This document shows, piece after piece, positions 24,816-35,511 of a DNA stretch of 37,161 nucleotides. Location: positions 1-37,161 of IMG/VR virus record IMGVR_UViG_3300027486_000001; one strand, 5' to 3'. The stretch is from a virus. The notes beneath the pieces were generated by a model. It was not told where the DNA came from, made no database searches, and was given only the letters and a program-made list of their open reading frames with translations. A program made the translations under genes and the position numbers. Numbering within the stretch: position 1 is the stretch's first letter; each line of letters begins with the position of its first letter.

Positions 24816-24826
24816 CTAGGCCCGGA
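24803..24826 (-). terminator. Hairpin spanning the int stop codon (tI/sib-like position)
   Basis: On the minus strand, UCCGGG, a 12-nt loop containing the UAG stop, then CCCGGA, followed by UUUGAUCCCGAUUUG. Confidence 0.35.
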
Positions 24827-25928
24827 CTTCGATCCATTCCGCCCCTCGCGAGTCCATGTAAATGTCGGTAGTGGTGCCCTGCTTGTGGCCTGCCAATGTC
24901 TGCGAAAAATCCCGCCCGCAAGCGTCTCCGTAGATCCTCAGGGCTAAGGATCTGATTTCGTGCAGGGTTGGCGGCAAGCGCCCTTCAGGCCAAGACAAAC
25001 CGGACAGATCACGCGCACGCTGGATGCCCTTTGATGCGCCATTGAGTGCAATCGGGTCTCCAGGGTTTGCGAGTGTCCTCCTGACGTTGTGGTGCAGCAT
25101 GTGGCGAGACAAAACAGAGTCTCTGCACTCCTTGATGGTGTCGCCTAGATTCCATCCGACGCCGGGAAGCGTCAAGGAAACGGGCAGTTTGATCCTTGCG
25201 CCAGTTTTGCCGCGCTCATTCCACAGGAACCCATCGCGCACGTCAGAAAACTCCCACGAAACGAGGCATTCTCTCGGCTGCGCTGATACAAGAGCCAGCT
25301 TCATGCAACGTGCGACCCACTTATCAGGCATGGTTTGTGCTGACTCGTAGACCTGCATGAACGTTTCAAGCGTCCACCGCTCCCGCTTCACTTTTGCCGA
25401 CTTGACGCCTAAGGTTTCGGCGGGGTTGCTGTTCACAATCCCACGCTTTGCCGCCTCTTTCCAAATGTCGATCATGACTGACCGAGTTTGGCCCGCCTGG
25501 CGATCATTTCCTTTCTCACTGATTGGGCCTGTCACTAGGTCGTGCATATCCTTCACGGTGACGCGGCACATGACCATAGACCCAAGACCGGAATCGATGC
25601 GCCTCAAGTTGCTTTGCAGTGTCTTGATCGTGTTGGCCTTTGCCCCTCGATCCTTCACGGCTTCAAGGTAATCGGGAATGAATTCTGAAACGGTGCGCAA
25701 TCCTTCTGTGCTGATTCGGTCTACCAGGCGCACAGCAGCGGCCATTCCAGACAACTTAACGTTCGCCTCGATGGCCTGAATCCTGGCGCGGTTGAAGTCT
25801 GCGCCCAAGCTGTAACGCTTCCCGGTTGCCGGGTGCTGCCAGAAGTAGAAAACCCCAGTTTCACGCTCGCGGCTGTAAAGGTGAGGGGGCCAGCCCTTGC
25901 GGGCCGGTTTGCGCGGTCTTGATGCCAT
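24816..25928 (-). CDS. int: Tyrosine integrase, lambda Int type
   Basis: 370 aa. The N-terminal arm-binding region (PPHLYSRERETGVFYFWQHPATGKRYSLGADFNRARIQAIEANVKL) closely parallels lambda Int as I recall it (PPNLYIRNNGYYCYRDPRTGKEFGLG...AITEAIQANIEL). The C-terminal catalytic motifs LHEIRSL (HxxR) and TTDIYMD (Tyr) are present. Confidence 0.92.
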   Translation of the reverse strand: MASRPRKPARKGWPPHLYSRERETGVFYFWQHPATGKRYSLGADFNRARIQAIEANVKLSGMAAAVRLVDRISTEGLRTVSEFIPDYLEAVKDRGAKANTIKTLQSNLRRIDSGLGSMVMCRVTVKDMHDLVTGPISEKGNDRQAGQTRSVMIDIWKEAAKRGIVNSNPAETLGVKSAKVKRERWTLETFMQVYESAQTMPDKWVARCMKLALVSAQPRECLVSWEFSDVRDGFLWNERGKTGARIKLPVSLTLPGVGWNLGDTIKECRDSVLSRHMLHHNVRRTLANPGDPIALNGASKGIQRARDLSGLSWPEGRLPPTLHEIRSLALRIYGDACGRDFSQTLAGHKQGTTTDIYMDSRGAEWIEVRA

Positions 25929-27700: not shown

Positions 27701-27927
27701 CACTCCCCCTTCGCAGCGGCGCGGGCTGCATGCTTTACGGGGTATGGCCCAACCTGTGTGCCGTCGATGCACGCCACTGGTCCAGATGCCTCAAGCTGGG
27801 CACCAAAGTTGCGGGATGCTTCGGCCTTACGTTCCGGCGTGCTCATGGCGCATCCAAAGCACACCATTGAGCCACGAGGACCGTATGGCCGCAGGTCGGT
27901 TGTCTTGTCGCAGTAGTGGCACTTCAC
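27700..27927 (-). CDS. Small zinc-ribbon-like protein (75 aa)
   Basis: GTG start overlaps the upstream TGA (GTGA). Two CxxC pairs are present (CHYCDK ... CFGCAM). Confidence 0.6.
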   Translation of the reverse strand: MKCHYCDKTTDLRPYGPRGSMVCFGCAMSTPERKAEASRNFGAQLEASGPVACIDGTQVGPYPVKHAARAAAKGE

Positions 27928-29360
27928 GCTGCGCCCTCCTCGCTATGGGGGGCAGATGACGCCCTTCGATTGAACCAATCAGCGGCCAGTCGCATGATCT
28001 GCGCTGCGGGAAGTTGGCCGCCATTTCCTTTCAATGTTGGGTAACCCATCGACGCCGACAGAGTCGCCTGGGCCATGCTTAGGTCTTCCATCAGCGCGTC
28101 CCGCACCTTGTCCCGCTCATCAGGCACAGCCTGGGCGGATAGGGCTGCTCGGTGGTAGTGCATCAGCGCAGCATAGATTGCAGGCTTTAAGTCGTTCCAG
28201 ATCGGCCCCGGTAATTGGTGGGGCATGGCCTTGGCAAACTCCCAGCAGGCATCGTTGACCACTGCGCTAGCCAACTCAGGCAACTCAGCGCTGGCAGGGG
28301 CGGGCTGTGGGGTGGTGTATCGCTTACGCTCAACGGCTCCGCATTTGTTGCAAATCCAAATGCTGCTCTTTGGGTCTAGTGCAAATTCGTCAGCGCAGGT
28401 AGAATCCGCATTGGATTGAGTGGTTTTCGGCACTCCTTTCAAAGCGAAATCAACGCCTGCGCCAACAGGCCCCACAAGCGCACCTTCGGGTGCGTTTGCT
28501 TTTTGACGTTCGATTTCCACATCAAGATCGCTGTGGTCTTGATTTGTCCAAAGCGCGATTGTTTTGCCGTCCTCAAACTTGACGCGGGCGATACCCCACT
28601 CAAATCCTTCTGCGTCTTTGTTTGGCTTGTGGAGGAAACCCAGCCACCTCTCGTATTTCTGGCAAAGGTCTGCCACGGCTTTCAGCATGTCATCCGATTG
28701 GCGAAGCTCATTCTTTAGGTGATCTACCTCGGTTGGGCGGTCGTATAGAGGGATAGCCCCCTCGTCTGTTTTCGCGCAGTCTGTCCAGCCAAATGGCTCG
28801 GCGCGGAAGTAACCGAACGGCTCCTGCGCTGCGGGCTCGGCCTGCTCCTGGCTGGCGGGTGGGGTGTATGCCTTGAGTCTAGAAATAACGTCTGGGCCTG
28901 TGTGTCCATCAAACTCAAACAATGCTCGCTCAGACTCAGGTACTGCGAATAAATCCCAGTCCTTCGCTTCGTAATGGTTGCTGATCTGACCGTCCGGAAG
29001 AACAGCTACAACAATGAACCACCCGCCCCCAAAGCACAGTTCACCGTCATGGTGTCGCCATGACTTGTGAACATTGCATTTTCCGCTCGACGCCCATTCG
29101 TTGAAGAGCGCGGCGTTGTATGCCTTGCGGAACTCATACAACTCGTTGAATGTGTGATACCCATCAGAGGTGTTGCCATCTATCACCACCTCCCCACTCT
29201 CTACCGGCTCGGCCTGGGTGGGCAGGGAGAGGGTTGACCGCAAAAAGGGAAGTGCTTTCTTAGCCTCTTTAACAGCCTGTCCATCTTCGGCTTCAATAAC
29301 GTCTTCCAGACGCCAAATAGCAGCTTGCAAAGCCTCGCGCAGCTTTTGTTCTGTGGTCAT
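27924..29360 (-). CDS. Large multi-domain early protein of unknown function (478 aa)
   Basis: ATG 29360 overlaps the upstream stop (ATGA), with AAGGA 6 nt upstream. It contains a conserved phage block (DGYHTFNELYEFRKAYNAALF...HKSWRHHDGELCFGGGWFIVVAVLPDGQISNHYEAKDWDLF...FDGHT). An Ea22-like FGW...IPLY motif and a CNKC pair follow. Confidence 0.7.
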   Translation of the reverse strand: MTTEQKLREALQAAIWRLEDVIEAEDGQAVKEAKKALPFLRSTLSLPTQAEPVESGEVVIDGNTSDGYHTFNELYEFRKAYNAALFNEWASSGKCNVHKSWRHHDGELCFGGGWFIVVAVLPDGQISNHYEAKDWDLFAVPESERALFEFDGHTGPDVISRLKAYTPPASQEQAEPAAQEPFGYFRAEPFGWTDCAKTDEGAIPLYDRPTEVDHLKNELRQSDDMLKAVADLCQKYERWLGFLHKPNKDAEGFEWGIARVKFEDGKTIALWTNQDHSDLDVEIERQKANAPEGALVGPVGAGVDFALKGVPKTTQSNADSTCADEFALDPKSSIWICNKCGAVERKRYTTPQPAPASAELPELASAVVNDACWEFAKAMPHQLPGPIWNDLKPAIYAALMHYHRAALSAQAVPDERDKVRDALMEDLSMAQATLSASMGYPTLKGNGGQLPAAQIMRLAADWFNRRASSAPHSEEGAA

Positions 29361-29686
29361 GCTTGTTCCTTTGCAATAGCCCACACGCGGCCATGACCAT
29401 CGTCACAACGCTCACGGCTCATCACCTTGCAGCCAATCAGGGCCTTGAACTTCTTTTGGGTCAGGTTCTTTCGCAAGGCTCCGGCGATCTTTACAACCTC
29501 TGACGGCTCGCACTTGACGCAAGATCCCGGCTTGAGTTGCTTGAACACTGCGTCATACTTGGACTCAACGTTGCTGCGCCACACAGGTGGCTCAACGCCA
29601 TGTTCAACGGCCAACAATGATGGATCAACCTCGATGGCCGGATGCTTTTGGACCGGGAATGGAAACTTGCGTGCTGTCTGTGTCAT
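29357..29686 (-). CDS. Hypothetical early protein (109 aa)
   Basis: The in-frame ATG at 29686 has GGAGAG 5 nt upstream. The track start at 29719 lacks an SD. Confidence 0.6.
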   Translation of the reverse strand: MTQTARKFPFPVQKHPAIEVDPSLLAVEHGVEPPVWRSNVESKYDAVFKQLKPGSCVKCEPSEVVKIAGALRKNLTQKKFKALIGCKVMSRERCDDGHGRVWAIAKEQA

Positions 29687-30199: not shown

Positions 30200-30415
30200 T
30201 TATTTGCCTAGTGAATCGATCTGCTCCAATCGATCCAGGCATTCCCGAATCGTTTGGATTTCGACAGAGTCAAACGAGACACCGTTTTGCAGCCTGACAA
30301 CTGCGTCGCGCATCTCATGCAGTGCATCTAGGCGGGCATTGCGTAATGCGCTAGCCCTTCCTAGCTTTTGCATTGCTTCGCTGTTGTCTATGTCAGGAAG
30401 CGGTCGCAGACTCAT
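30200..30415 (-). CDS. Hypothetical early protein (71 aa)
   Basis: ATG 30415 overlaps the erf stop (ATGA). Confidence 0.55.
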   Translation of the reverse strand: MSLRPLPDIDNSEAMQKLGRASALRNARLDALHEMRDAVVRLQNGVSFDSVEIQTIRECLDRLEQIDSLGK

Positions 30416-30972
30416 GCAGGCCACGCTGCGGTCAATTTGTCTTGAACATCGGCTGGCAGCTTTGCCCAAATCGCGTTCATGGCAGATTCAGACAGGCCAG
30501 CCAGATAAGCGGCGGCACCGCCTGCATCACCAGACTTCACGCCGTTGATAACCTCTTGCGCTGGATCTGGCCGTTGTGCTGGTCGCTGTGCGTTCTTTGC
30601 GCTTGTCGCTGCATTGCCGTCATCGTCTTCAGGCGCAATCCCACATGCAGCCATCAGCGAATAGCGGCGGGCATAAGTCAGGGCCGATCCGTAGCCTTGA
30701 GGGTCTTGCTTTGCAGCAGGAACATGCAATGGGCCGGATGACAGAGATTCGCCTGATTCGTGAATGAACACGGTTTCAACGCACACACCCGATTCCGTTT
30801 CGATGTTTCGTTGAATCAAGGCAATGCCGTTGTCGTTCAAAGCATCAATGACAGCTTCAACGCAAGCCGACAGATCCGCGTAACGGCTCTTGAAGTGGGG
30901 GTTTGTGCTGCTTTTGAGTGCTGGCCCGAATGCCTTCTGTGCCTTGACCATTGCTGCTGATACGTTTTTCAT
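30412..30972 (-). CDS. erf: ERF-family single-strand annealing recombinase
   Basis: NPHFKSRYADLSACVEAV...GIALIQ...VETVFIHESGE...PQGYGSALTYARRYSLMAACGIAPEDDDGNAA is the ERF signature. ATG 30972 has GGAG 7 nt upstream. The alternative ATG at 30987 has none. Confidence 0.88.
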   Translation of the reverse strand: MKNVSAAMVKAQKAFGPALKSSTNPHFKSRYADLSACVEAVIDALNDNGIALIQRNIETESGVCVETVFIHESGESLSSGPLHVPAAKQDPQGYGSALTYARRYSLMAACGIAPEDDDGNAATSAKNAQRPAQRPDPAQEVINGVKSGDAGGAAAYLAGLSESAMNAIWAKLPADVQDKLTAAWPA

Positions 30973-31054
30973 TGAAGTGCTCCACATATTCCGAAAAGGG
31001 TTCTTGCTCTTGGCGCTCTAATTCATCCCAGAGCCAGGATTTCGTCTTGCTCAT
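30857..31054 (-). CDS. Possible small ORF (65 aa) overlapping the erf 5' end out of frame
   Basis: ATG 31054 overlaps the upstream stop (ATGA). The N part (MSKTKSWLWDELERQEQEPFSEYVEHFNE) looks protein-like. The last 116 nt or so overlap erf. Confidence 0.3.
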   Translation of the reverse strand: MSKTKSWLWDELERQEQEPFSEYVEHFNEKRISSNGQGTEGIRASTQKQHKPPLQEPLRGSVGLR

Positions 31055-31281: not shown

Positions 31282-31333
31282 GGTTGTTCTCCGTGGGCAC
31301 AAACGGCCCTGATTGCATCCGTAAGGGAGTGAG

Positions 31334-31558
31334 TCACAGCACGACATGAGCAAAACCCGTCAATGCTTTGAACTTCTCTTTTGCCCATTCAATGGCCTGC
31401 TTTGGGCTGGACCATTCGCCGGTAACGTGATGGGCTTGGCCGTCTTGGCCTGCAAATGTGAGGTGGATGCGCATCTCGCTCTCCTTGATAAATCCAGCGG
31501 TCAGGAACACCAGAGCAAAGGCCCCGGCTGCAATGACGATTCGGTCTTGGCGGTCCAT
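31334..31558 (-). CDS. Small membrane-anchored early protein (74 aa, N-terminal TM)
   Basis: ATG 31558 lies 1 nt after the upstream stop, with GGAGG 7 nt upstream. The TM segment is IVIAAGAFALVFLTAGFI. Confidence 0.55.
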   Translation of the reverse strand: MDRQDRIVIAAGAFALVFLTAGFIKESEMRIHLTFAGQDGQAHHVTGEWSSPKQAIEWAKEKFKALTGFAHVVL

Positions 31559-31559
31559 G

Positions 31560-31868
31560 TCAAACCTCCAGTGCAGCGTTCTTGCGCTCATCGACAGCAA
31601 AGTCAGCCAAAGCGCCTAGACGGTCTTGCTCGGTGATTTCTGTCTCGATGCAAAGGTCGCAGCGCATGGCTGCTTGGTCAACCAAATCACCCAATACATC
31701 AAGTCCTTCGATGTTCTGGTTTGCTTGCATGTTGGCAATCTCATCAACAAGACGACCAACGTGGTCGAGTACTGACTTGATTTGATCCAAGCGCCATTCA
31801 TGGCCCGCTGTGTTGCGAACCGAGGCAATCAGCAGGTCAACAAAGTTGAGCTTGTCACTGTTTCCCAT
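31560..31868 (-). CDS. First gene of the leftward early operon, acidic helical protein (102 aa), unknown function
   Basis: ATG 31868 has GGAG 6 nt upstream. No HTH or Arg-rich motif was recognised. Confidence 0.6.
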   Translation of the reverse strand: MGNSDKLNFVDLLIASVRNTAGHEWRLDQIKSVLDHVGRLVDEIANMQANQNIEGLDVLGDLVDQAAMRCDLCIETEITEQDRLGALADFAVDERKNAALEV

Positions 31869-31892
31869 TCCTATCTCCATCTGTGCAGAATT

Positions 31893-31927
31893 TGCTGCGA
31901 TGGGATGAATCATCCCGCACCACAGCA
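31893..31927. promoter_or_regulatory. Palindrome in the divergent early control region (operator or 5'-UTR hairpin candidate)
   Basis: Perfect 7+1+7 palindrome GGGATGA-A-TCATCCC (31902-31916), flanked by TGCTG (31893-31897) and CAGCA (31923-31927). It lies 24 nt upstream of the first leftward ATG. Further small palindromes are ATCGC...GCGAT (31951-31969) and TTGAACAATTCAA (31969-31981). Confidence 0.4.
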
Positions 31928-32017
31928 AATCCGTCTAATTGGTTTTTTCTATCGCAAGCAAAAAGCGATTGAACAATTCAAATTGACCGGAAAAACGATC
32001 AGATGCAAAGTGCAGCC

Positions 32018-32161
32018 ATGAACATCATCAACACCCAAAAGATCAGCGCCAGGATTGAAGGCAATGAGCTTGTTCTGACGCACCGCTCAGGTGGTGAAGT
32101 CAGGATTCCGCTTAAGCGTCTTGAAAACTGGCTTATCAGGCAATTCCGCCAAGAGTTATGA
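32018..32161 (+). CDS. Possible first rightward micro-ORF (47 aa)
   Basis: MNIINTQKISARIEGNELVLTHRSGGEVRIPLKRLENWLIRQFRQEL. There is no SD. A TTGACC (31983-31988) plus 17 nt plus CAAAGT would place a transcription start near the ATG, so it could be leaderless. This is speculative. Confidence 0.35.
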   Translation: MNIINTQKISARIEGNELVLTHRSGGEVRIPLKRLENWLIRQFRQEL

Positions 32162-32167
32162 GGGCAT

Positions 32168-32878
32168 ATGGATCAATCTACAGAAAATGACGGGCAAATG
32201 ATGCTGCCTCTTTGCATCAACAAGGAAGATGTTCTGGCTTGGATCAAGTCAATGCAAGAACTGGAAATTGATGAGCGCGTATCGCTGATCAACGAGTTGC
32301 GAGAAGAGTTGCATGGCGTCTCTCCATTCAATACCGAACCAGTTGATTTTGTTCGTTGGGTAAAAGCCCCGCTAGTTCATGCAAACGACTACAACCCAAA
32401 CAGTGTTGCCCCACCTGAAATGGAGTTGCTTCGGTTGTCAATTGCTGCCGACGGATACACGCAGCCGATTGTGTCCATGCAGCACGATGGCAATTTTGAG
32501 GTGATCGACGGTTTTCACCGACACCGGGTTGGAAAGGAATGCCAAGACATTCAGTCGCGCATTCATGGCTATCTGCCATTGGTTCAGATTCGCTCAAGCC
32601 AAACAGACAAATCAGATCGAATGGCCGCAACGATTCGGCATAACCGCGCTCGCGGAGAGCACCGCGTTGACTCAATGGCTGAAATCGTTTTGGAGTTGAA
32701 GCGCCGGTTCTGGTCCGACGAGAAGATCGCAAAAGAATTAGGCATGGAGCCTGATGAGGTTTTGCGATTGACTCAAGTAACAGGTCTGGCTGGAGTTTTT
32801 GCAGATCATGAGTTTTCCGAGGCTTGGGAGGCTGATACTTTGCGCGAGGTAGAAGGGGATGACGACATCAATCAATGA
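32168..32878 (+). CDS. ibrB: ParB/sulfiredoxin-like nuclease-domain protein, YbdM/IbrB type
   Basis: 236 aa. It has YNPNSVAPPEMELLRLSIAADGYTQPIV...VIDGFHRHRV...ATIRHNRARG (ParB N-domain-like DGxHR and arginine patch) and a C-terminal HTH-like stretch (EKIAKELGMEPDEVLRLTQVTGL). Confidence 0.75.
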   Translation: MDQSTENDGQMMLPLCINKEDVLAWIKSMQELEIDERVSLINELREELHGVSPFNTEPVDFVRWVKAPLVHANDYNPNSVAPPEMELLRLSIAADGYTQPIVSMQHDGNFEVIDGFHRHRVGKECQDIQSRIHGYLPLVQIRSSQTDKSDRMAATIRHNRARGEHRVDSMAEIVLELKRRFWSDEKIAKELGMEPDEVLRLTQVTGLAGVFADHEFSEAWEADTLREVEGDDDINQ

Positions 32879-33266
32879 GTTAGATCCACATCCAGGTGAG
32901 ATTTGGCACCCATGGTGGCTTCTTGAGGAAGTCAAGGCAAACATGTGGGGTAATGTCAGTAATCGGAAAGCATGGATTCAGATAGCGATTGACTTTACTG
33001 GAAATCCAGAGCTATACGGAGAATGGATGAGGCGCGTTGCTGATGTTTGGAAGCATTCATGCGAGCACGCACTCACAAAAAGTGGAGATAAACGAGCATG
33101 GATAGGCCATGCAGCAGTAGCTATGGCGCTCGGTTGTCCTGAAGACATTGTTAGAGAGGCGTGGGGCCACCTGACAGAAGATCAACAAATCAAGGCCAAT
33201 GCAAAAGCAACAGAGGCCATTGAATACTGGAGAGATAAACATGCCAAAGAAAAGCTTAGGACTTGA
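32859..33266 (+). CDS. Unknown protein (135 aa) wedged between the ParB-like and PP-loop genes
   Basis: It overlaps the upstream gene by 20 nt and the downstream gene by 26 nt. It is Trp-rich (WHPWWLLEE..., AWIGHAAVAMALGCPEDIVREAWGHL). No family recognised. Confidence 0.65.
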   Translation: MTTSINELDPHPGEIWHPWWLLEEVKANMWGNVSNRKAWIQIAIDFTGNPELYGEWMRRVADVWKHSCEHALTKSGDKRAWIGHAAVAMALGCPEDIVREAWGHLTEDQQIKANAKATEAIEYWRDKHAKEKLRT

Positions 33267-34467
33267 TGTTCTAACTGCGGCCCGTCAGCGCATTTCATGG
33301 ACGTTTGATGAGTTTGACCGGATCTATTGCAGTTTTAGCGCTGGAAAAGATAGCGGCGTAATGGTGCATCTTGTTTGCGAAGAGGCTAGAAAGCGCGGAA
33401 GGAAAATCGGATTGTTTTTCCTCGATTGGGAGGCGCAATTTTCTCTGACAATTGATTTTGCTCGACGCATTTTTAATGAATACGCTGATTGCGTTGAGCC
33501 ATATTGGATTGCGCTTCCAATAAAGACGTGGAATGCCGTTTCGATGTATGAGCCTGAATGGACGGCATGGGATGAATCCAAAAAGAATCTATGGGTTCGC
33601 CAGCCTGAGCCAATCAGCATCACAAATAAAGAAACGATGCCTTTTTGGTACGAAGGCATTATGTTTGAGGAGTTTGTTCCTACATTTGGTCAGTGGTATG
33701 CGCAAGGTGAAAAATGCGCGTGTTTTGTAGGTATTCGCGCACAAGAAAGCCTAAATCGATTCAGGACATTGGCAAGAGAAAAGCCAATGTATGACGGTAA
33801 GCCATACACAACAAATGTTGTTGAAAATGTCTGGAATGTCTACCCGATCTACGATTGGAGGACAGAAGATATTTGGGTATATCACGGCAAAACAAGAAAG
33901 GATTACAACAAACTGTATGACCGTATGTGGCAGGCGGGCATGACGATCCATCAAATGCGAATTTGTGAGCCGTTTGGTGATGAATCTCGCAAAGGTTTGT
34001 GGCTTTATCAGGTTGTTGAGCCTTCTGTTTGGGCTCGCCTTGTCTTGCGGGTAAATGGAGCGAATACAGGCAAGCTGTACAGCAATGAGCGCGGCAATGT
34101 TATGGGGAATCACACAATCACCCTTCCTGCCGGCCACACTTGGAAGTCATTTGCGATGAGCTTGCTAAAAAGCACGCCACCAAAGACAGCGCAGCACTAC
34201 AAAAACAAGATCGCTGTTTACCTGAACTGGTGGATGAAACGAGGCTATCCAGATGGAATTCCTGATGAGGCCGATCTGAAGCTAGAAAACAACCAGAAGG
34301 CCCCAAGCTGGAGGCGGGTATGCAAGACCCTCTTGCGCAATGATTATTGGTGCAAATACATGGGTTTTAGCCCAACGAAGACAAGTGCATATCAGAAATA
34401 TACAGATTTGATGGCACGCAGACGAAAAGCTTGGAATCTGTTCGCGGAGGATATTAAATCATCGTAA
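33241..34467 (+). CDS. ibrA: PAPS-reductase-like PP-loop ATP pyrophosphatase, YbdN/IbrA type
   Basis: ATG 33241 has GGAGAG 6 nt upstream (the track start is 33199). The PP-loop SFSAGKDSGV lies at aa 26-35. FFLDWEAQF and EPYWIALP blocks follow. A long C-terminal extension is typical of the IbrA/YbdN (DUF3440-containing) type. Confidence 0.78.
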   Translation: MPKKSLGLDVLTAARQRISWTFDEFDRIYCSFSAGKDSGVMVHLVCEEARKRGRKIGLFFLDWEAQFSLTIDFARRIFNEYADCVEPYWIALPIKTWNAVSMYEPEWTAWDESKKNLWVRQPEPISITNKETMPFWYEGIMFEEFVPTFGQWYAQGEKCACFVGIRAQESLNRFRTLAREKPMYDGKPYTTNVVENVWNVYPIYDWRTEDIWVYHGKTRKDYNKLYDRMWQAGMTIHQMRICEPFGDESRKGLWLYQVVEPSVWARLVLRVNGANTGKLYSNERGNVMGNHTITLPAGHTWKSFAMSLLKSTPPKTAQHYKNKIAVYLNWWMKRGYPDGIPDEADLKLENNQKAPSWRRVCKTLLRNDYWCKYMGFSPTKTSAYQKYTDLMARRRKAWNLFAEDIKSS

Positions 34468-34503
34468 AAAGCAATGTCTCCATATTTGCAGAAGGATAAA
34501 ACC

Positions 34504-34686
34504 ATGAACGCGTTCTCCAAAGCTTACACGCCAGTCATAACCCCCAAAGAGATCAAGTCCACATCCAAGCGAGTGACCAAGGTTGACCCGCATGTGGACT
34601 CACACATCTATTTGGGCAAGAAGGAAACCAGCCAGGAGCGCGCAGATAGGCGCAAGAAGCTGGAACGCTCCAACTCTTTTTGTTGA
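34504..34686 (+). CDS. Small basic protein (60 aa)
   Basis: ATG 34504 has AGGA 8 nt upstream. The alternative ATG at 34474 is the track start. Lys/Arg-rich (KRVTK..., ERADRRKKLERS). Confidence 0.5.
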   Translation: MNAFSKAYTPVITPKEIKSTSKRVTKVDPHVDSHIYLGKKETSQERADRRKKLERSNSFC

Positions 34687-34815
34687 GAGTTTGAGGTAAA
34701 ATCAAGCATCCGGCGCAATGCTGGTAACGCGGGGGGCCTAGGCTCATTACCGAAAAGGCGTTTAGTCCACGCTCTGGCCCCGCACACCGCTTGGACCACC
34801 TTTGACTGAGGTTTC

Positions 34816-35511
34816 ATGGCTATCGTTCGATCCCCTCGAAAGCATGGGACTTTTACCGTGCTTTCTAATTCAGTTTTGCTCGATTCACGCCTATCTATGC
34901 GTGCTCTTGGGTTGCTTGTGAGGCTTCTTTCCCGTCCTGACAATTGGCGCACAAACAGCGAAACTCTTGCTCGAGAGTTCAGTTGCGGCAGAGATCAAAT
35001 GCGGACTACTTTAAAAGAGTTGTCCGATTGCGGTTATGTACGTTTAGTCAAGTCAAATGGCGATGATGGTCGAATCGCATCAGAGTGGCATGTCTTTGAT
35101 GATGGCATTGAATCTGACAACGCACCAGGGCCTGAAAAACCGTACGTCGGTGAACCAGCGACTGGAAAACCAGCTTCCGGTAAATCAGGCCCCTTAACAA
35201 AGACTGACTTAACAAAGACTGATAACAAAGACGCTGTGCCTATCGGCTTCTCTGAGTTTTGGTCTACTTGGCCGGTAAGTAATCGAAAAGGCGGGAAAGC
35301 TGAGTGCCTGAAGGTGTGGACATCAAGACATCTTGAGAAGTCTGCTGATGTGATCGTCAATCACGTCAAATACATGACAACAACAAACGATTGGGCAAAG
35401 AACTTTGGCGAGTTTATCCCCGCGCCGGTTGTGTATTTGCGTGGGGCTCGATGGGATGGGGCGAGCGATTCATCCGATCCAATCAAGAATCCATTTGCAG
35501 GAGTTATATGA
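34816..35511 (+). CDS. Replication initiator / replisome organiser with an N-terminal winged-helix domain
   Basis: FTVLSNSVLLDSRLSMRALGLLVRLLSRPDNWRTNSETLAREFSCGRDQMRTTLKELSDCGYV is the typical phage replication-protein wHTH pattern. It has a low-complexity linker carrying tandem DNA repeats, and the helicase gene lies downstream. Confidence 0.75.
   Translation: MAIVRSPRKHGTFTVLSNSVLLDSRLSMRALGLLVRLLSRPDNWRTNSETLAREFSCGRDQMRTTLKELSDCGYVRLVKSNGDDGRIASEWHVFDDGIESDNAPGPEKPYVGEPATGKPASGKSGPLTKTDLTKTDNKDAVPIGFSEFWSTWPVSNRKGGKAECLKVWTSRHLEKSADVIVNHVKYMTTTNDWAKNFGEFIPAPVVYLRGARWDGASDSSDPIKNPFAGVI
35194..35236. repeat. Tandem iteron-like repeats inside the initiator gene (candidate origin)
   Basis: TTAACAAAGACTGAC (35194-35208), TTAACAAAGACTGAT (35209-35223) and AACAAAGACGCTG (35224-35236), encoding LTKTDLTKTDNKD in the linker. 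Confidence 0.6.

Follow-up and report, generated by a model that had tools for sequence, protein, structure and literature searches.

A third protein, T, accompanies the IbrB/IbrA gene pair in a mobile three-gene module of phages

Introduction

Of the gene pairs in phage genomes that still lack an explanation, those of a PAPS-reductase-like and a ParB-like protein are some of the most common, and those of the IbrA/IbrB kind are routinely mis-annotated as auxiliary metabolic genes (AMGs) of sulfur metabolism or as partition genes. The only genetic datum on them reportedly comes from Sandt et al. in 2002, with IbrA and IbrB activating prophage eib genes, and as such it points to regulation and not to modification. 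We know of no phage IbrA/IbrB pair with an established substrate, product or phenotype. An earlier note on the DNA analyzed here had held that no chemistry has been demonstrated for the pair, and in the searchable full-text literature we indeed located neither a biochemical study nor any published chemistry for IbrA/IbrB.

For related proteins, some functions have been described. On double-stranded DNA, a DNA thymine dioxygenase needs a phage ParB-like protein as its activator, and since mutants in the NTP-binding residues of this system retained activity, the role of ParB as an 'NTP switch' is uncertain even there (PMC13229309). In a Vibrio phage, a fusion of a PAPS-reductase-like domain to Dam, together with a neighboring gene, leads to escape from Dnd (preprint 10.1101/2021.05.05.442762). 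Aca-regulated operons that are anti-defense candidates also contain PAPS reductases (PMC13551039). Here, we describe a locus in which an IbrB/IbrA pair is joined by a third gene, whose product we call T.

Layout of the Locus

The window, that is, the whole stretch of 37,161 nt that was analyzed (IMG/VR record IMGVR_UViG_3300027486_000001), carries the three genes as plus-strand ORFs overlapping by 20 and 26 nt (Table 1). The earlier note had described them in this way, in agreement with the ORF list, and the motifs that it named (VIDGFHRHRV, ATIRHNRARG and SFSAGKDS) were each located in the translations. The ORF lister puts the start of IbrA at an earlier ATG (33199); we place it at 33241 because the homologues all begin at a conserved MPK... 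N-terminus.

Table 1. Positions of the three genes, their motifs and the 3' border of the module in the window
Feature	Position	Strand	Remarks
IbrB-type ParB/Srx-like protein	32168..32878	+	236 aa, acidic, pI 4.8, C-terminal HTH-like tail
T, Trp-rich, all-helical, undescribed family	32859..33266	+	135 aa
IbrA-type PP-loop protein: PAPS_reduct N-domain and basic DUF3440 C-domain	33241..34467	+	408 aa
DGFHR motif, IbrB residues 114-118	32507..32521	+	ParB box-II / Srx-like phosphate-binding motif
TIRHNRARG motif, IbrB residues 155-163	32630..32656	+	invariant residues in 16 homologues
PP-loop SFSAGKDS, IbrA residues 31-38	33331..33354	+	cross-phylum invariance
IbrA C-terminal module, residues ~330-408, pI 9.7, ...RGYPDGIPDE...PSWRRVCKTLLRNDYWCK...	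34228..34464	+	
Mosaic junction, 3' end of the module	34468..34469	no strand	divergence point versus contig L132

The cassette has a GC content of 47.3%, versus 54.2% for the remainder of the window, and is its lowest-GC 2.7-kb stretch (mean 53.8%, sd 2.3%). This bears out the low GC claimed earlier. The dip extends into the replication-initiator gene (47.8%).

What had been called a divergent control region was not confirmed as such: it is only a 75-nt strand switch (31929-32002) with no Cro/CI-like protein recognized beside it, and the placement of the cassette at the head of an operon was inferred solely from this switch; in relatives, a Cro-like gene lies ~3.5 kb upstream of the trio. No sigma-70 consensus promoter was found between 31300 and 35000 (3.6 expected). 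Rfam and tRNA scans gave nothing above threshold, and a search near the cassette for repeats or palindromes that could serve as a parS-like or operator site returned only chance-level two-copy matches. The phage encodes an integrase.

Two small flanking ORFs had been attached to the cassette as well. The upstream one is present as stated if begun at the ATG at 32018 (47 codons), but gene callers choose the ATG at 32003 and 52 codons. The downstream basic ORF spans 34474-34686 (70 aa) or 34504-34686 (60 aa, pI 9.9). Neither has a homologue in 127 related loci, and the module ends in a mosaic junction at the stop codon of ibrA; both flankers were therefore rejected as members of the unit.

IbrA and IbrB Belong to Known Families

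The assignment of the third ORF to the PAPS-reductase-like PP-loop proteins holds in a Pfam profile search. IbrA matches PAPS_reduct (PF01507; 7e-16, 59.1 bits, cut-off 22.5) followed by DUF3440 (PF11922; 2e-40, 139.2 bits, cut-off 25), as well as phrog_2302 (3e-93), and resembles the annotated IbrA of Escherichia phage PhiR5_2 over nearly its full length (47% identity, 397 aa, E 3e-135). Invariance was judged on a cross-phylum alignment of nine sequences. Residues S31, S33, G35, K36, D37 and S38 are identical in phages of Proteobacteria, Actinobacteria, Firmicutes, Fusobacteria and Chlorobi, as are the PAPS-reductase arginine and DW motifs and residues N367 and D368. The same alignment contains no invariant cysteine; C242, C361 and C371 are conserved within the close clade of the window only. 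The model of the N-terminal domain matches CysH (the best hits), CysD, FMN adenylyltransferase and TtuA in Foldseek (probability 1.0, E 1e-7 to 1e-3), at 13-20% sequence identity to these structures. By motif and modeled fold, IbrA is a member of the PP-loop ATP pyrophosphatase superfamily and a predicted ATP user. The overall model has a pLDDT of 74 with several loops below 50, and its DUF3440 part, which is of moderate confidence, has no structural neighbor. This domain is basic in seven of nine homologues, a property that suits a polyanion, DNA and RNA alike.

IbrB was said to be of the ParB/sulfiredoxin type. It matches phrog_2159, 'ParB-like partition protein' (1e-65), and the annotated IbrB of PhiR5_2 (48% identity, 191 aa, E 2e-65), while Pfam ParB_N scores below its cut-off (19.2 versus 26.3 bits). 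The homologue of Pseudomonas phage Amjad_SA is 67% identical. Across 16 diverse homologues, D114, G115, H117 and R118 are invariant, as are T155, R157, H158, N159, R160, A161, R162 and G163, and the HTH-like C-terminal tail is invariant too. All 16 are acidic (pI 4.8-6.6). The protein thus combines a DGxHR N-domain with similarity to annotated IbrB, and its gene adjoins ibrA or T-ibrA in every full locus. No useful PDB entry was found by sequence, whether the query was IbrA, IbrB or a T profile.

T Is a Conserved Third Partner

The ORF wedged between the pair had been described as no part of the classical pair. It is no intruder: among 63 non-redundant IbrA-seeded IMG/VR loci with full flanks, T lies directly upstream of ibrA in 51 (81%), mostly with a gap of -17 to +26 nt. 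The gene orders are B-T-A (36 loci), T-A-B (11), A-B (11) and a few others. Conversely, ibrA adjoins T in all T-seeded loci with enough flank. The family has more than 500 close homologues and comprises 667 clusters at 50% identity; T itself has no match in Pfam, NCBIfam, PHROG or PADLOC. An AF2 model (pLDDT 92) shows seven helices. In the PDB, this model has no fold match (all Foldseek E values 2.9 or above), and in BFVD it finds only T's own homologue. T is a conserved, fast-evolving third partner of a large IbrA/IbrB subfamily.

T is also the most variable of the three. Mean identities to the window proteins are 67% for IbrB, 49% for T and 69% for IbrA, with T the least identical in 58 of 65 loci. 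Its divergence is incongruent with that of IbrA: one locus (L050) has an IbrA of 81% and a T of 35% identity, another (L038) 56% and 63%, respectively. By these identities, T diverges faster than IbrA and IbrB and has been swapped among them. In T-less loci, its slot is filled by T2, a small protein unrelated to T.

Further links lead to the C-terminal module of IbrA. It occurs as a free-standing protein directly 3' of T in four lineages (Gaia, XCL1123, L042 and L044), and is fused to T in three cluster representatives (P0126, P0171 and P0166). Most T matches stand alone. The match to P0121, with 50 stretches in 3017 aa, is an artefact of tandem repeats, and the one weak case of a T::GNAT fusion was discarded as below the Pfam cut-off. 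A TusA-like or AhpD-like cysteine relay was considered for T on account of C68, invariant in the close clade, and a CPED motif. It was rejected, since beyond that clade the family does not keep these cysteines; C68 and C93 are conserved in the close clade of the window, and no cysteine is invariant family-wide.

A Mobile Module

The same trio is found in the cultured Pseudomonas phage Amjad_SA, Mycobacterium phage Gaia and Pseudoalteromonas phage XCL1123. In GenBank, 224 of 50,697 phage records match the IbrA query, as do more than 8,000 metagenomic clusters, and a GTDB scan gave only four loci, all on short MAG contigs. Neither the cassette nor the first 24 kb had a megablast match in the 50,697 phage records; at the DNA level, the phage thus appears to have no close cultured relative.

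Neighboring genes vary by locus and include RNR/dUTPase, NinB/NinG and helicases. One related contig is 95% identical to the window from 31348 to 34469 and then continues with a different replication gene, DUF1376, and the junction coincides exactly with the ibrA stop codon. The varied neighbors, this junction and the GC dip bear out the earlier view of a horizontally mobile three-protein unit in the early/replication region. What the sequences show is a three-gene module, self-contained and horizontally mobile, in which the IbrB/IbrA (YbdM/YbdN-like) pair is extended by T.

What the Module May Do

We tentatively favor, at somewhat less than an even chance, a module that acts early and with ATP to modify a nucleic acid (probably DNA) or to counter restriction, T being an exchangeable adaptor. 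IbrA would cleave ATP with its intact PP-loop and adenylate a site in a nucleic acid (phage DNA most probably) that is held by its basic DUF3440 domain. The activated position could then be substituted, and the resulting covalent modification would shield or mark the phage genome against restriction-type defenses of the host. Acidic IbrB would act as a nucleotide-dependent activator or loader of IbrA, much like the ParB-like partners of other DNA-modifying enzymes, while T may dock on the IbrA C-terminal module as an exchangeable adaptor or specificity element. Because no cysteine is conserved family-wide, a non-sulfur substitution or plain adenylyl transfer would be likelier than Dnd-like thiolation.

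Several observations are counted in support of this modification: the invariant PP-loop, arginine and DW motifs, nearest folds that handle ATP or adenylates, basic DUF3440 and acidic IbrB, along with the three precedents given in the introduction. Weighing against it are the eib phenotype, which points to regulation, the lack of a ParB-type binding site near the cassette and of a recognized restriction or desulfurase partner among the scanned ORFs, and the moderate confidence of the DUF3440 model. The free C-modules after T in four lineages and the T::C-module fusions in three representatives are those listed for a T-IbrA link; lowest identity, incongruence with IbrA and replacement by T2 are those for T as the variable element. 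Going further, the trio in its B-T-A form and in the T2 variant could be a new class of machinery with which phages modify nucleic acids. Its PP-loop enzyme would adenylate, the ParB/Srx-like protein would activate in an NTP-dependent manner, and T or T2 would dock on the IbrA C-module as an exchangeable small specificity subunit; together they would place an undescribed covalent mark, probably non-sulfur, on phage DNA and so defeat host restriction. We consider this class doubtful.

An unlikely alternative, and the foremost one, is that the module is a transcriptional co-activator or anti-silencer, in which IbrB binds DNA and turns on phage or host genes together with IbrA and T. This would match the action of IbrAB on eib genes, the family's only reported genetic phenotype, and would resemble the ParB-like regulators VirB and KorB. 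The family name, the annotation 'co-activator of prophage gene expression', the HTH-like invariant tail of IbrB and the early-operon position all fit. However, it leaves the invariant predicted ATP-pyrophosphatase site of IbrA unexplained, and strong acidity such as that of IbrB is unusual in regulators that bind DNA. The search near the cassette also found no repeats or palindromes resembling operators, and the pair occurs in strictly lytic-looking contexts beside replication genes.

Ranked behind it, and likewise unlikely, is an anti-defense or takeover enzyme with a target other than phage DNA (host tRNA or RNA, a host protein or an immune signaling nucleotide), which would be adenylated or consumed. 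The fold relatives of IbrA include tRNA modifiers (TtuA, NcsA) and adenylyltransferases of small molecules (CysD, FMNAT), T is fast-evolving and swapped as host-interacting proteins are, and the module occupies variable early regions. Pairing with a ParB-like protein is nevertheless typical of the DNA-directed DndB, DpdB and 5mYOX-ParB (PMC13229309, PMC12839542), and a basic DUF3440 would fit DNA and RNA equally.

Dnd/Ssp-like phosphorothioation or another thiolation, with sulfur from host IscS, is improbable. IbrA has weak similarity to DndC and BrxP models, the ParB-like partner is reminiscent of DndB, and the close-clade cysteines of IbrA and T could be recruited to this cause. Against PADLOC defense models, IbrA gave only marginal matches, to DndC and BrxP. 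Known sulfur-transferring PP-loop enzymes need catalytic cysteines or cysteine-bound Fe-S clusters. With TIGR03183 (DndC) at 19.1 bits against a cut-off of 290.4 and no invariant cysteine in IbrA, the thiolation idea of the earlier note is weakened; T offers none across its family either. DndC itself requires a three-cysteine 4Fe-4S center and a cysteine dyad (PMC10853773). As the note had said, no cysteine desulfurase, DndD/E or restriction partner, and likewise no SspB/C-like or other partner, was recognized among the scanned ORFs of the window; DndA/D/E or Ssp/BREX partners adjoin the cassette neither here nor in the 127 related loci.

Very improbable is an auxiliary metabolic gene for a genuine PAPS reductase (CysH) that would enhance sulfate assimilation by the host, as many phage annotations imply. 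PHROG and GenBank do label the protein 'phosphoadenosine phosphosulfate reductase', and the top structural matches are CysH. Its scores nonetheless fall far below the cut-offs (TIGR02057, 36.4 versus 254.2 bits; TIGR00434, 30.5 versus 165.1; NF002537, 33.7 versus 154), the ECG[LI]H catalytic motif is absent from the translated sequence, and the protein contains DUF3440 and is tied to an obligate ParB-like partner. Moreover, the PP-loop of IbrA is intact and ATP-type, whereas that of CysH is degenerate. A plasmid-prophage partition system with a ParB for segregation, suggested by the 'ParB-like partition protein' annotation, is barely credible given TIGR00180 at 19.8 bits against 58.45, a sub-cut-off ParB_N score, no ParA found, no parS-like repeats near the cassette and the integrase. 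By these scores and motifs, we take IbrA not to be CysH or DndC, and IbrB not to be a partition ParB.

With three results (a fast-evolving third subunit that a large subfamily always carries, its link to the IbrA C-module and T2 in T-less loci), a vague pair takes shape as a system of three parts whose architecture can be tested. Amjad_SA and Gaia are cultured phages suited to testing it. Should the module modify DNA, the anti-restriction chemistry of phages would gain a new class of enzyme.

Comparison with Known Systems

IbrA has its N-terminal fold and PP-loop in common with CysH, CysD, FMN adenylyltransferase and TtuA. It widely misses all of their curated family cut-offs, however, and carries an extra 160-aa basic DUF3440 domain, itself without structural neighbor.

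DndB/DndC (and SspD, BrxP) likewise combine a ParB/Srx-superfamily protein with a PAPS-reductase-like PP-loop ATP pyrophosphatase and a plausible adenylation step. The similarity of IbrA to DndC is weak and local only (PADLOC DndC, E 1e-5, a local 22-bit match), with DUF3440 in place of the DndC C-terminal region and neither the Fe-S cysteine triad nor the cysteine dyad conserved. DndA/D/E, a restriction partner and PglZ were not recognized beside this cassette. The protein of Vibrio crassostreae podovirus p0018 is phage-borne as well, with a PAPS-reductase-like domain experimentally implicated in Dnd escape (10.1101/2021.05.05.442762), but it is fused to a Dam methylase and lacks DUF3440, a ParB-like partner and T.

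In 5mYOX176/ParB176 and DpdA/DpdB, a ParB-like protein stands beside a DNA-modifying enzyme and is needed on double-stranded DNA (PMC13229309, PMC12839542). Such dependence is the functional model that we adopt for IbrB. Their enzymes, an Fe/2OG dioxygenase or a transglycosylase, are unrelated to the PP-loop protein IbrA, and both systems are without a T-like third subunit.

Closest are IbrA/IbrB of E. coli ECOR-9 and their prophage and K-12 paralogues YbdN/YbdM, which belong to the same two families and have the DGxHR and TIRHNRARG motifs in common with our proteins. The genes are adjacent and overlapping in both, and identity to annotated phage copies is 47-48%. In E. coli, however, the order is A-B, and the annotated E. 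coli phage copy has no ORF in the slot of T. No link to eib genes is visible in the window. Here, T is intercalated and the order is B-T-A. The IbrB/IbrA pair is of an already known kind; what is new is T.

IbrB and IbrA Are a Widespread Pair

The window, a contig of 37 kb, resembles a temperate phage: its late genes occupy the + strand to about 23.7 kb, and a leftward and then a rightward block follow (see table). The earlier note had described three overlapping reading frames in the rightward block, and these are present with exactly the overlaps it gave: 20 nt between ibrB, encoding a ParB/sulfiredoxin-like protein, and the gene of the middle protein, here called T, and 26 nt between T and ibrA, encoding a PP-loop enzyme. 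The motifs it quoted are there as well. The ibrA start was chosen because homologues share an MPK... N-terminus.

Its assignment of the outer proteins to the IbrB/IbrA type was right. The annotated IbrB and IbrA of Escherichia phage PhiR5_2 are 48% and 47% identical to the window proteins over nearly their full length, and unannotated genes of Pseudomonas phage Amjad_SA reach 67-68% for both. IbrA matches PAPS_reduct (7e-16) and DUF3440 (2e-40), both above the Pfam cut-offs, and phrog_2302 (3e-93). IbrB falls below the Pfam ParB_N cut-off (19.2 bits vs 26.3) and matches phrog_2159, 'ParB-like partition protein' (1e-65). IbrA misses the curated CysD model by a wide margin (24 bits vs 195). Homologues of IbrA were found by tblastn in 224 phage records (phages of Flavobacterium, Mycobacterium, Streptococcus, Arthrobacter, Bacillus and others), and a metagenome protein search returned at least 8,000 hits. 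Judged by these matches, the pair is of a known and very widespread kind.

Among genome-resolved sequences, the closest homologues of the trio lie in MAGs of Methylotenera, Polaromonas and Spongiibacteraceae, a hint that the host is a proteobacterium and possibly a betaproteobacterium. An ENA metagenome contig of 37,175 bp (ERZ27251682) is the same as the window. Megablast of the window DNA (the cassette and the first 24 kb) against 50,697 GenBank phage records gave no match.

Coordinates of features in the window and in related loci (L numbers)
Feature	Sequence	Coordinates	Strand	Remark
Leftward block	window	after ~23.7 kb	-	contains integrase and ERF recombinase
Integrase	window	24816-25928		leftward block
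ERF recombinase	window	30412-30987		leftward block
Rightward block	window	from about 32.0 kb	+	
ibrB	window	32168-32878	+	
T	window	32859-33266	+	
ibrA	window	33241-34467	+	start 33241
Free C-module ORF	L004	5744-5944		Gaia gp107
Free C-module ORF	L005	5412-5642		
Free C-module ORF	L042	5362-5592		
Free C-module ORF	L044	5342-5599		
T2	L003	571-948		
T2	L100	2108-2500		
T2	L105	4612-5019		
T2	L113	4639-5055		
Ectoine-synthase-annotated domain	L004	4106-5005		Gaia gp104
Ectoine-synthase-annotated domain	L005	4131-4523 + 4525-5061		
Ectoine-synthase-annotated domain	L044	6872-7249		

T Is a Conserved Third Partner

The earlier note had called the middle frame wedged-in and no part of the classical pair; related loci show it to be a conserved third component. 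HMMs built for the three proteins were scanned across 127 fetched loci, and gene order was counted in the 63 non-redundant IMG/VR loci that were found through IbrA and have full flanks. T occurs in 51 of these (81%), immediately upstream of ibrA every time, with a gap mostly of -17 to +26 nt. The prevailing order is ibrB-T-ibrA (36/63), followed by T-ibrA-ibrB and ibrA-ibrB (11/63 each) and other orders (5/63). Conversely, in loci found through T, ibrA adjoins it in all, contig permitting. Three unrelated cultured phages also carry the trio: Amjad_SA in the order of the window, Mycobacterium phage Gaia (gp103-106) and Pseudoalteromonas phage XCL1123 as ibrA-ibrB-T. Phages of Gram-positive hosts and the E. 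coli phage have ibrA-ibrB only.

Neither Pfam nor NCBIfam, PHROGs or PADLOC gave a match to T. More than 500 homologues share 64-100% identity with it, and in an exhaustive profile search the family came to 667 clusters (50% identity level), whose members are almost always stand-alone and 90-200 aa long. The AlphaFold model is confident and has seven helices (pLDDT 92); it has no neighbour among PDB structures (best E 2.9), and its sole BFVD match is its own homologue. The top score in the profile search belonged to P0121 (3017 aa), a tandem-repeat protein with a unit of ~53 aa that weakly matches profile positions 65-98 a total of 50 times; it was rejected as an apparent summed-score artefact. 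Another representative, P0214 (251 aa), ends in a GNAT-acetyltransferase-like extension (Acetyltransf_10, 19.1 bits, under the 23.6 cut-off), perhaps a genuine fusion, perhaps an error of gene calling.

The Trio Moves as a Cassette

For the small frames that the earlier note had described on either side of the trio (47/52 codons upstream, 60/70 codons and basic downstream), none of the 127 loci has a homologue. A related contig, L132, shares 95% identity with window 31348-34469 and diverges exactly past the ibrA stop, where a different replication gene follows. Neighbours of the trio also vary by phage: one has a DEAD helicase, dUTPase and RNR, others have NinB/NinG and a P22 Cro-like gene. 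Because of this pattern, the unit as read from gene context is ibrB, T and ibrA, which travel together as a cassette between early/replication regions.

A low GC content had been proposed for the cassette, and a sliding comparison bears this out, though modestly: the cassette has 47.3% vs 54.2% for the rest and no 2.7-kb stretch of the window is lower. It lies some 3 sd under the mean, and low GC continues into the replication-initiator gene. What had been called a divergent control region amounts to no more than a 75-nt strand switch, beside which no Cro/CI-like gene was recognised, and no sigma-70 consensus promoter was found in window 31300-35000 (3.6 expected). Terminator-like hairpins are in excess over the same span (9 vs 3.3 expected); eight of the nine are on the - strand, within the + strand cassette genes. 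Between the small basic frame and the replication-initiator gene, a sub-threshold Rfam match to int-alpA RNA spans the whole model (34731-34797, +; 24.1 bits vs a gathering score of 35.8, E 0.08). In the leftward operon, a 486-aa protein between integrase and ERF recombinase (27924-29384, -) has a strong WDGH domain (PF25311, 4e-35); its PHROG matches are families of unknown function.

T Is Exchangeable and Linked to the IbrA C-Terminus

Directly after T in Gaia, XCL1123 and two IMG/VR lineages stands a 60-85-aa frame homologous to the C-terminal ~75 residues of IbrA, sharing the motif ...RGYPDGIPDE...PSW+R...LL+ND...; all four lineages also carry full-length IbrA. P0126, P0171 and P0166, each a cluster representative, join T and this C-terminal module in one fused protein. 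Such a Rosetta-stone pattern suggests that T works with, and probably binds, the IbrA C-terminal module.

T is also the fast-evolving, shuffled component of the trio. Mean identity to the window copy is 67% for IbrB, 49% for T and 69% for IbrA, and T is the least identical in 58 of 65 loci. Its similarity does not follow that of IbrA (81% IbrA with 35% T in L050; 56% with 63% in L038). In almost all loci that lack T, its place is taken by T2, an unrelated family of 120-140 aa whose gene overlaps the start of ibrA (N-terminus MKA.L.LE.IGD...); T2 has no Pfam match, and its sole PHROG match is phrog_26647, of unknown function. Besides the four loci tabulated it occurs in eight further IMG/VR loci; Chlorobiaceae phage CV-1-33 is an example of a carrier. 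Where the enzyme is conserved and its small partner can be exchanged, one would expect the partner to be a subunit for specificity or an adaptor, or else to present a surface that meets the host in an arms race.

In Gaia/XCL1123-type systems, a domain annotated as 'ectoine synthase' travels with the module, as an N-terminal fusion to the ParB-like protein or split from it, and in L044 possibly as its own gene after ibrA, as read by eye. From the record annotation alone it is taken to be cupin-like.

Likely Chemistry

In phages from five bacterial phyla, the invariant features of IbrA are its PP-loop (S31, S33, G35, K36, D37, S38), D62/E64, an R166-E-S-L-x-R173 loop, a YPxYDW motif and N367-D368. 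An intact PP-loop implies that a substrate is adenylated by attack on the ATP alpha-phosphate, with PPi released. The N-domain model has structural matches at 13-20% identity in CysH, CysD, FMN adenylyltransferase, TtuA and LarE; DUF3440 has none. This domain is basic (pI 9.4-10.1 in 7/9 homologues) and IbrB is acidic in 16/16 homologues examined, so a polyanion-binding surface is more likely to lie on IbrA than on the ParB-like protein. The invariant IbrB motifs (DG.HR, TIRHNRARG.H, ANDYNPN..APPE) fit a conserved nucleotide-binding or catalytic pocket of ParB/Srx type.

Taken together, the most likely function, which we put forward tentatively, is an ATP-dependent covalent modification of nucleic acid, probably of phage DNA, as early counter-defence. 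A regulatory role of the module is less likely, and a target other than DNA slightly less likely still. Dnd-like thiolation, among the ideas of the earlier note, is improbable. The sulfur-inserting PP-loop enzymes TtuA, MnmA, ThiI and LarE need catalytic cysteines or cysteine-held Fe-S clusters, and DndC likewise requires catalytic cysteines and an Fe-S cluster held by cysteines (PMC10853773). No IbrA cysteine is invariant across the five phyla (the best kept, C371, is Met in a Clostridium phage), which argues against thiolation as the family-wide reaction, although the local clade of the window keeps three; the curated DndC model is also missed (19 bits vs 290). CysH-type metabolism and partition are disfavoured by their curated models (36 bits vs 254 for CysH, 20 vs 58 for partition ParB).

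Comparison With Known Systems

Full-text literature searches turned up no biochemical work on IbrA/IbrB, the pair goes unmentioned in a 2025 survey of the ParB-CTPase fold, and phage 'PAPS reductases' are still interpreted as sulfur AMGs. PAPS reductases in Aca-regulated operons have been proposed as anti-defence (PMC13551039), and a Vibrio phage PAPS-domain::Dam fusion with its adjacent gene provides escape from Dnd (preprint 10.1101/2021.05.05.442762). Two ParB-like proteins, DpdB and DndB, partner enzymes that modify DNA (PMC12839542), and on dsDNA a DNA thymine dioxygenase requires a phage ParB-like protein as a cognate-specific activator (PMC13229309). IbrA/IbrB is a kind already known; what is added here is a three-component mobile module with an undescribed, exchangeable T.
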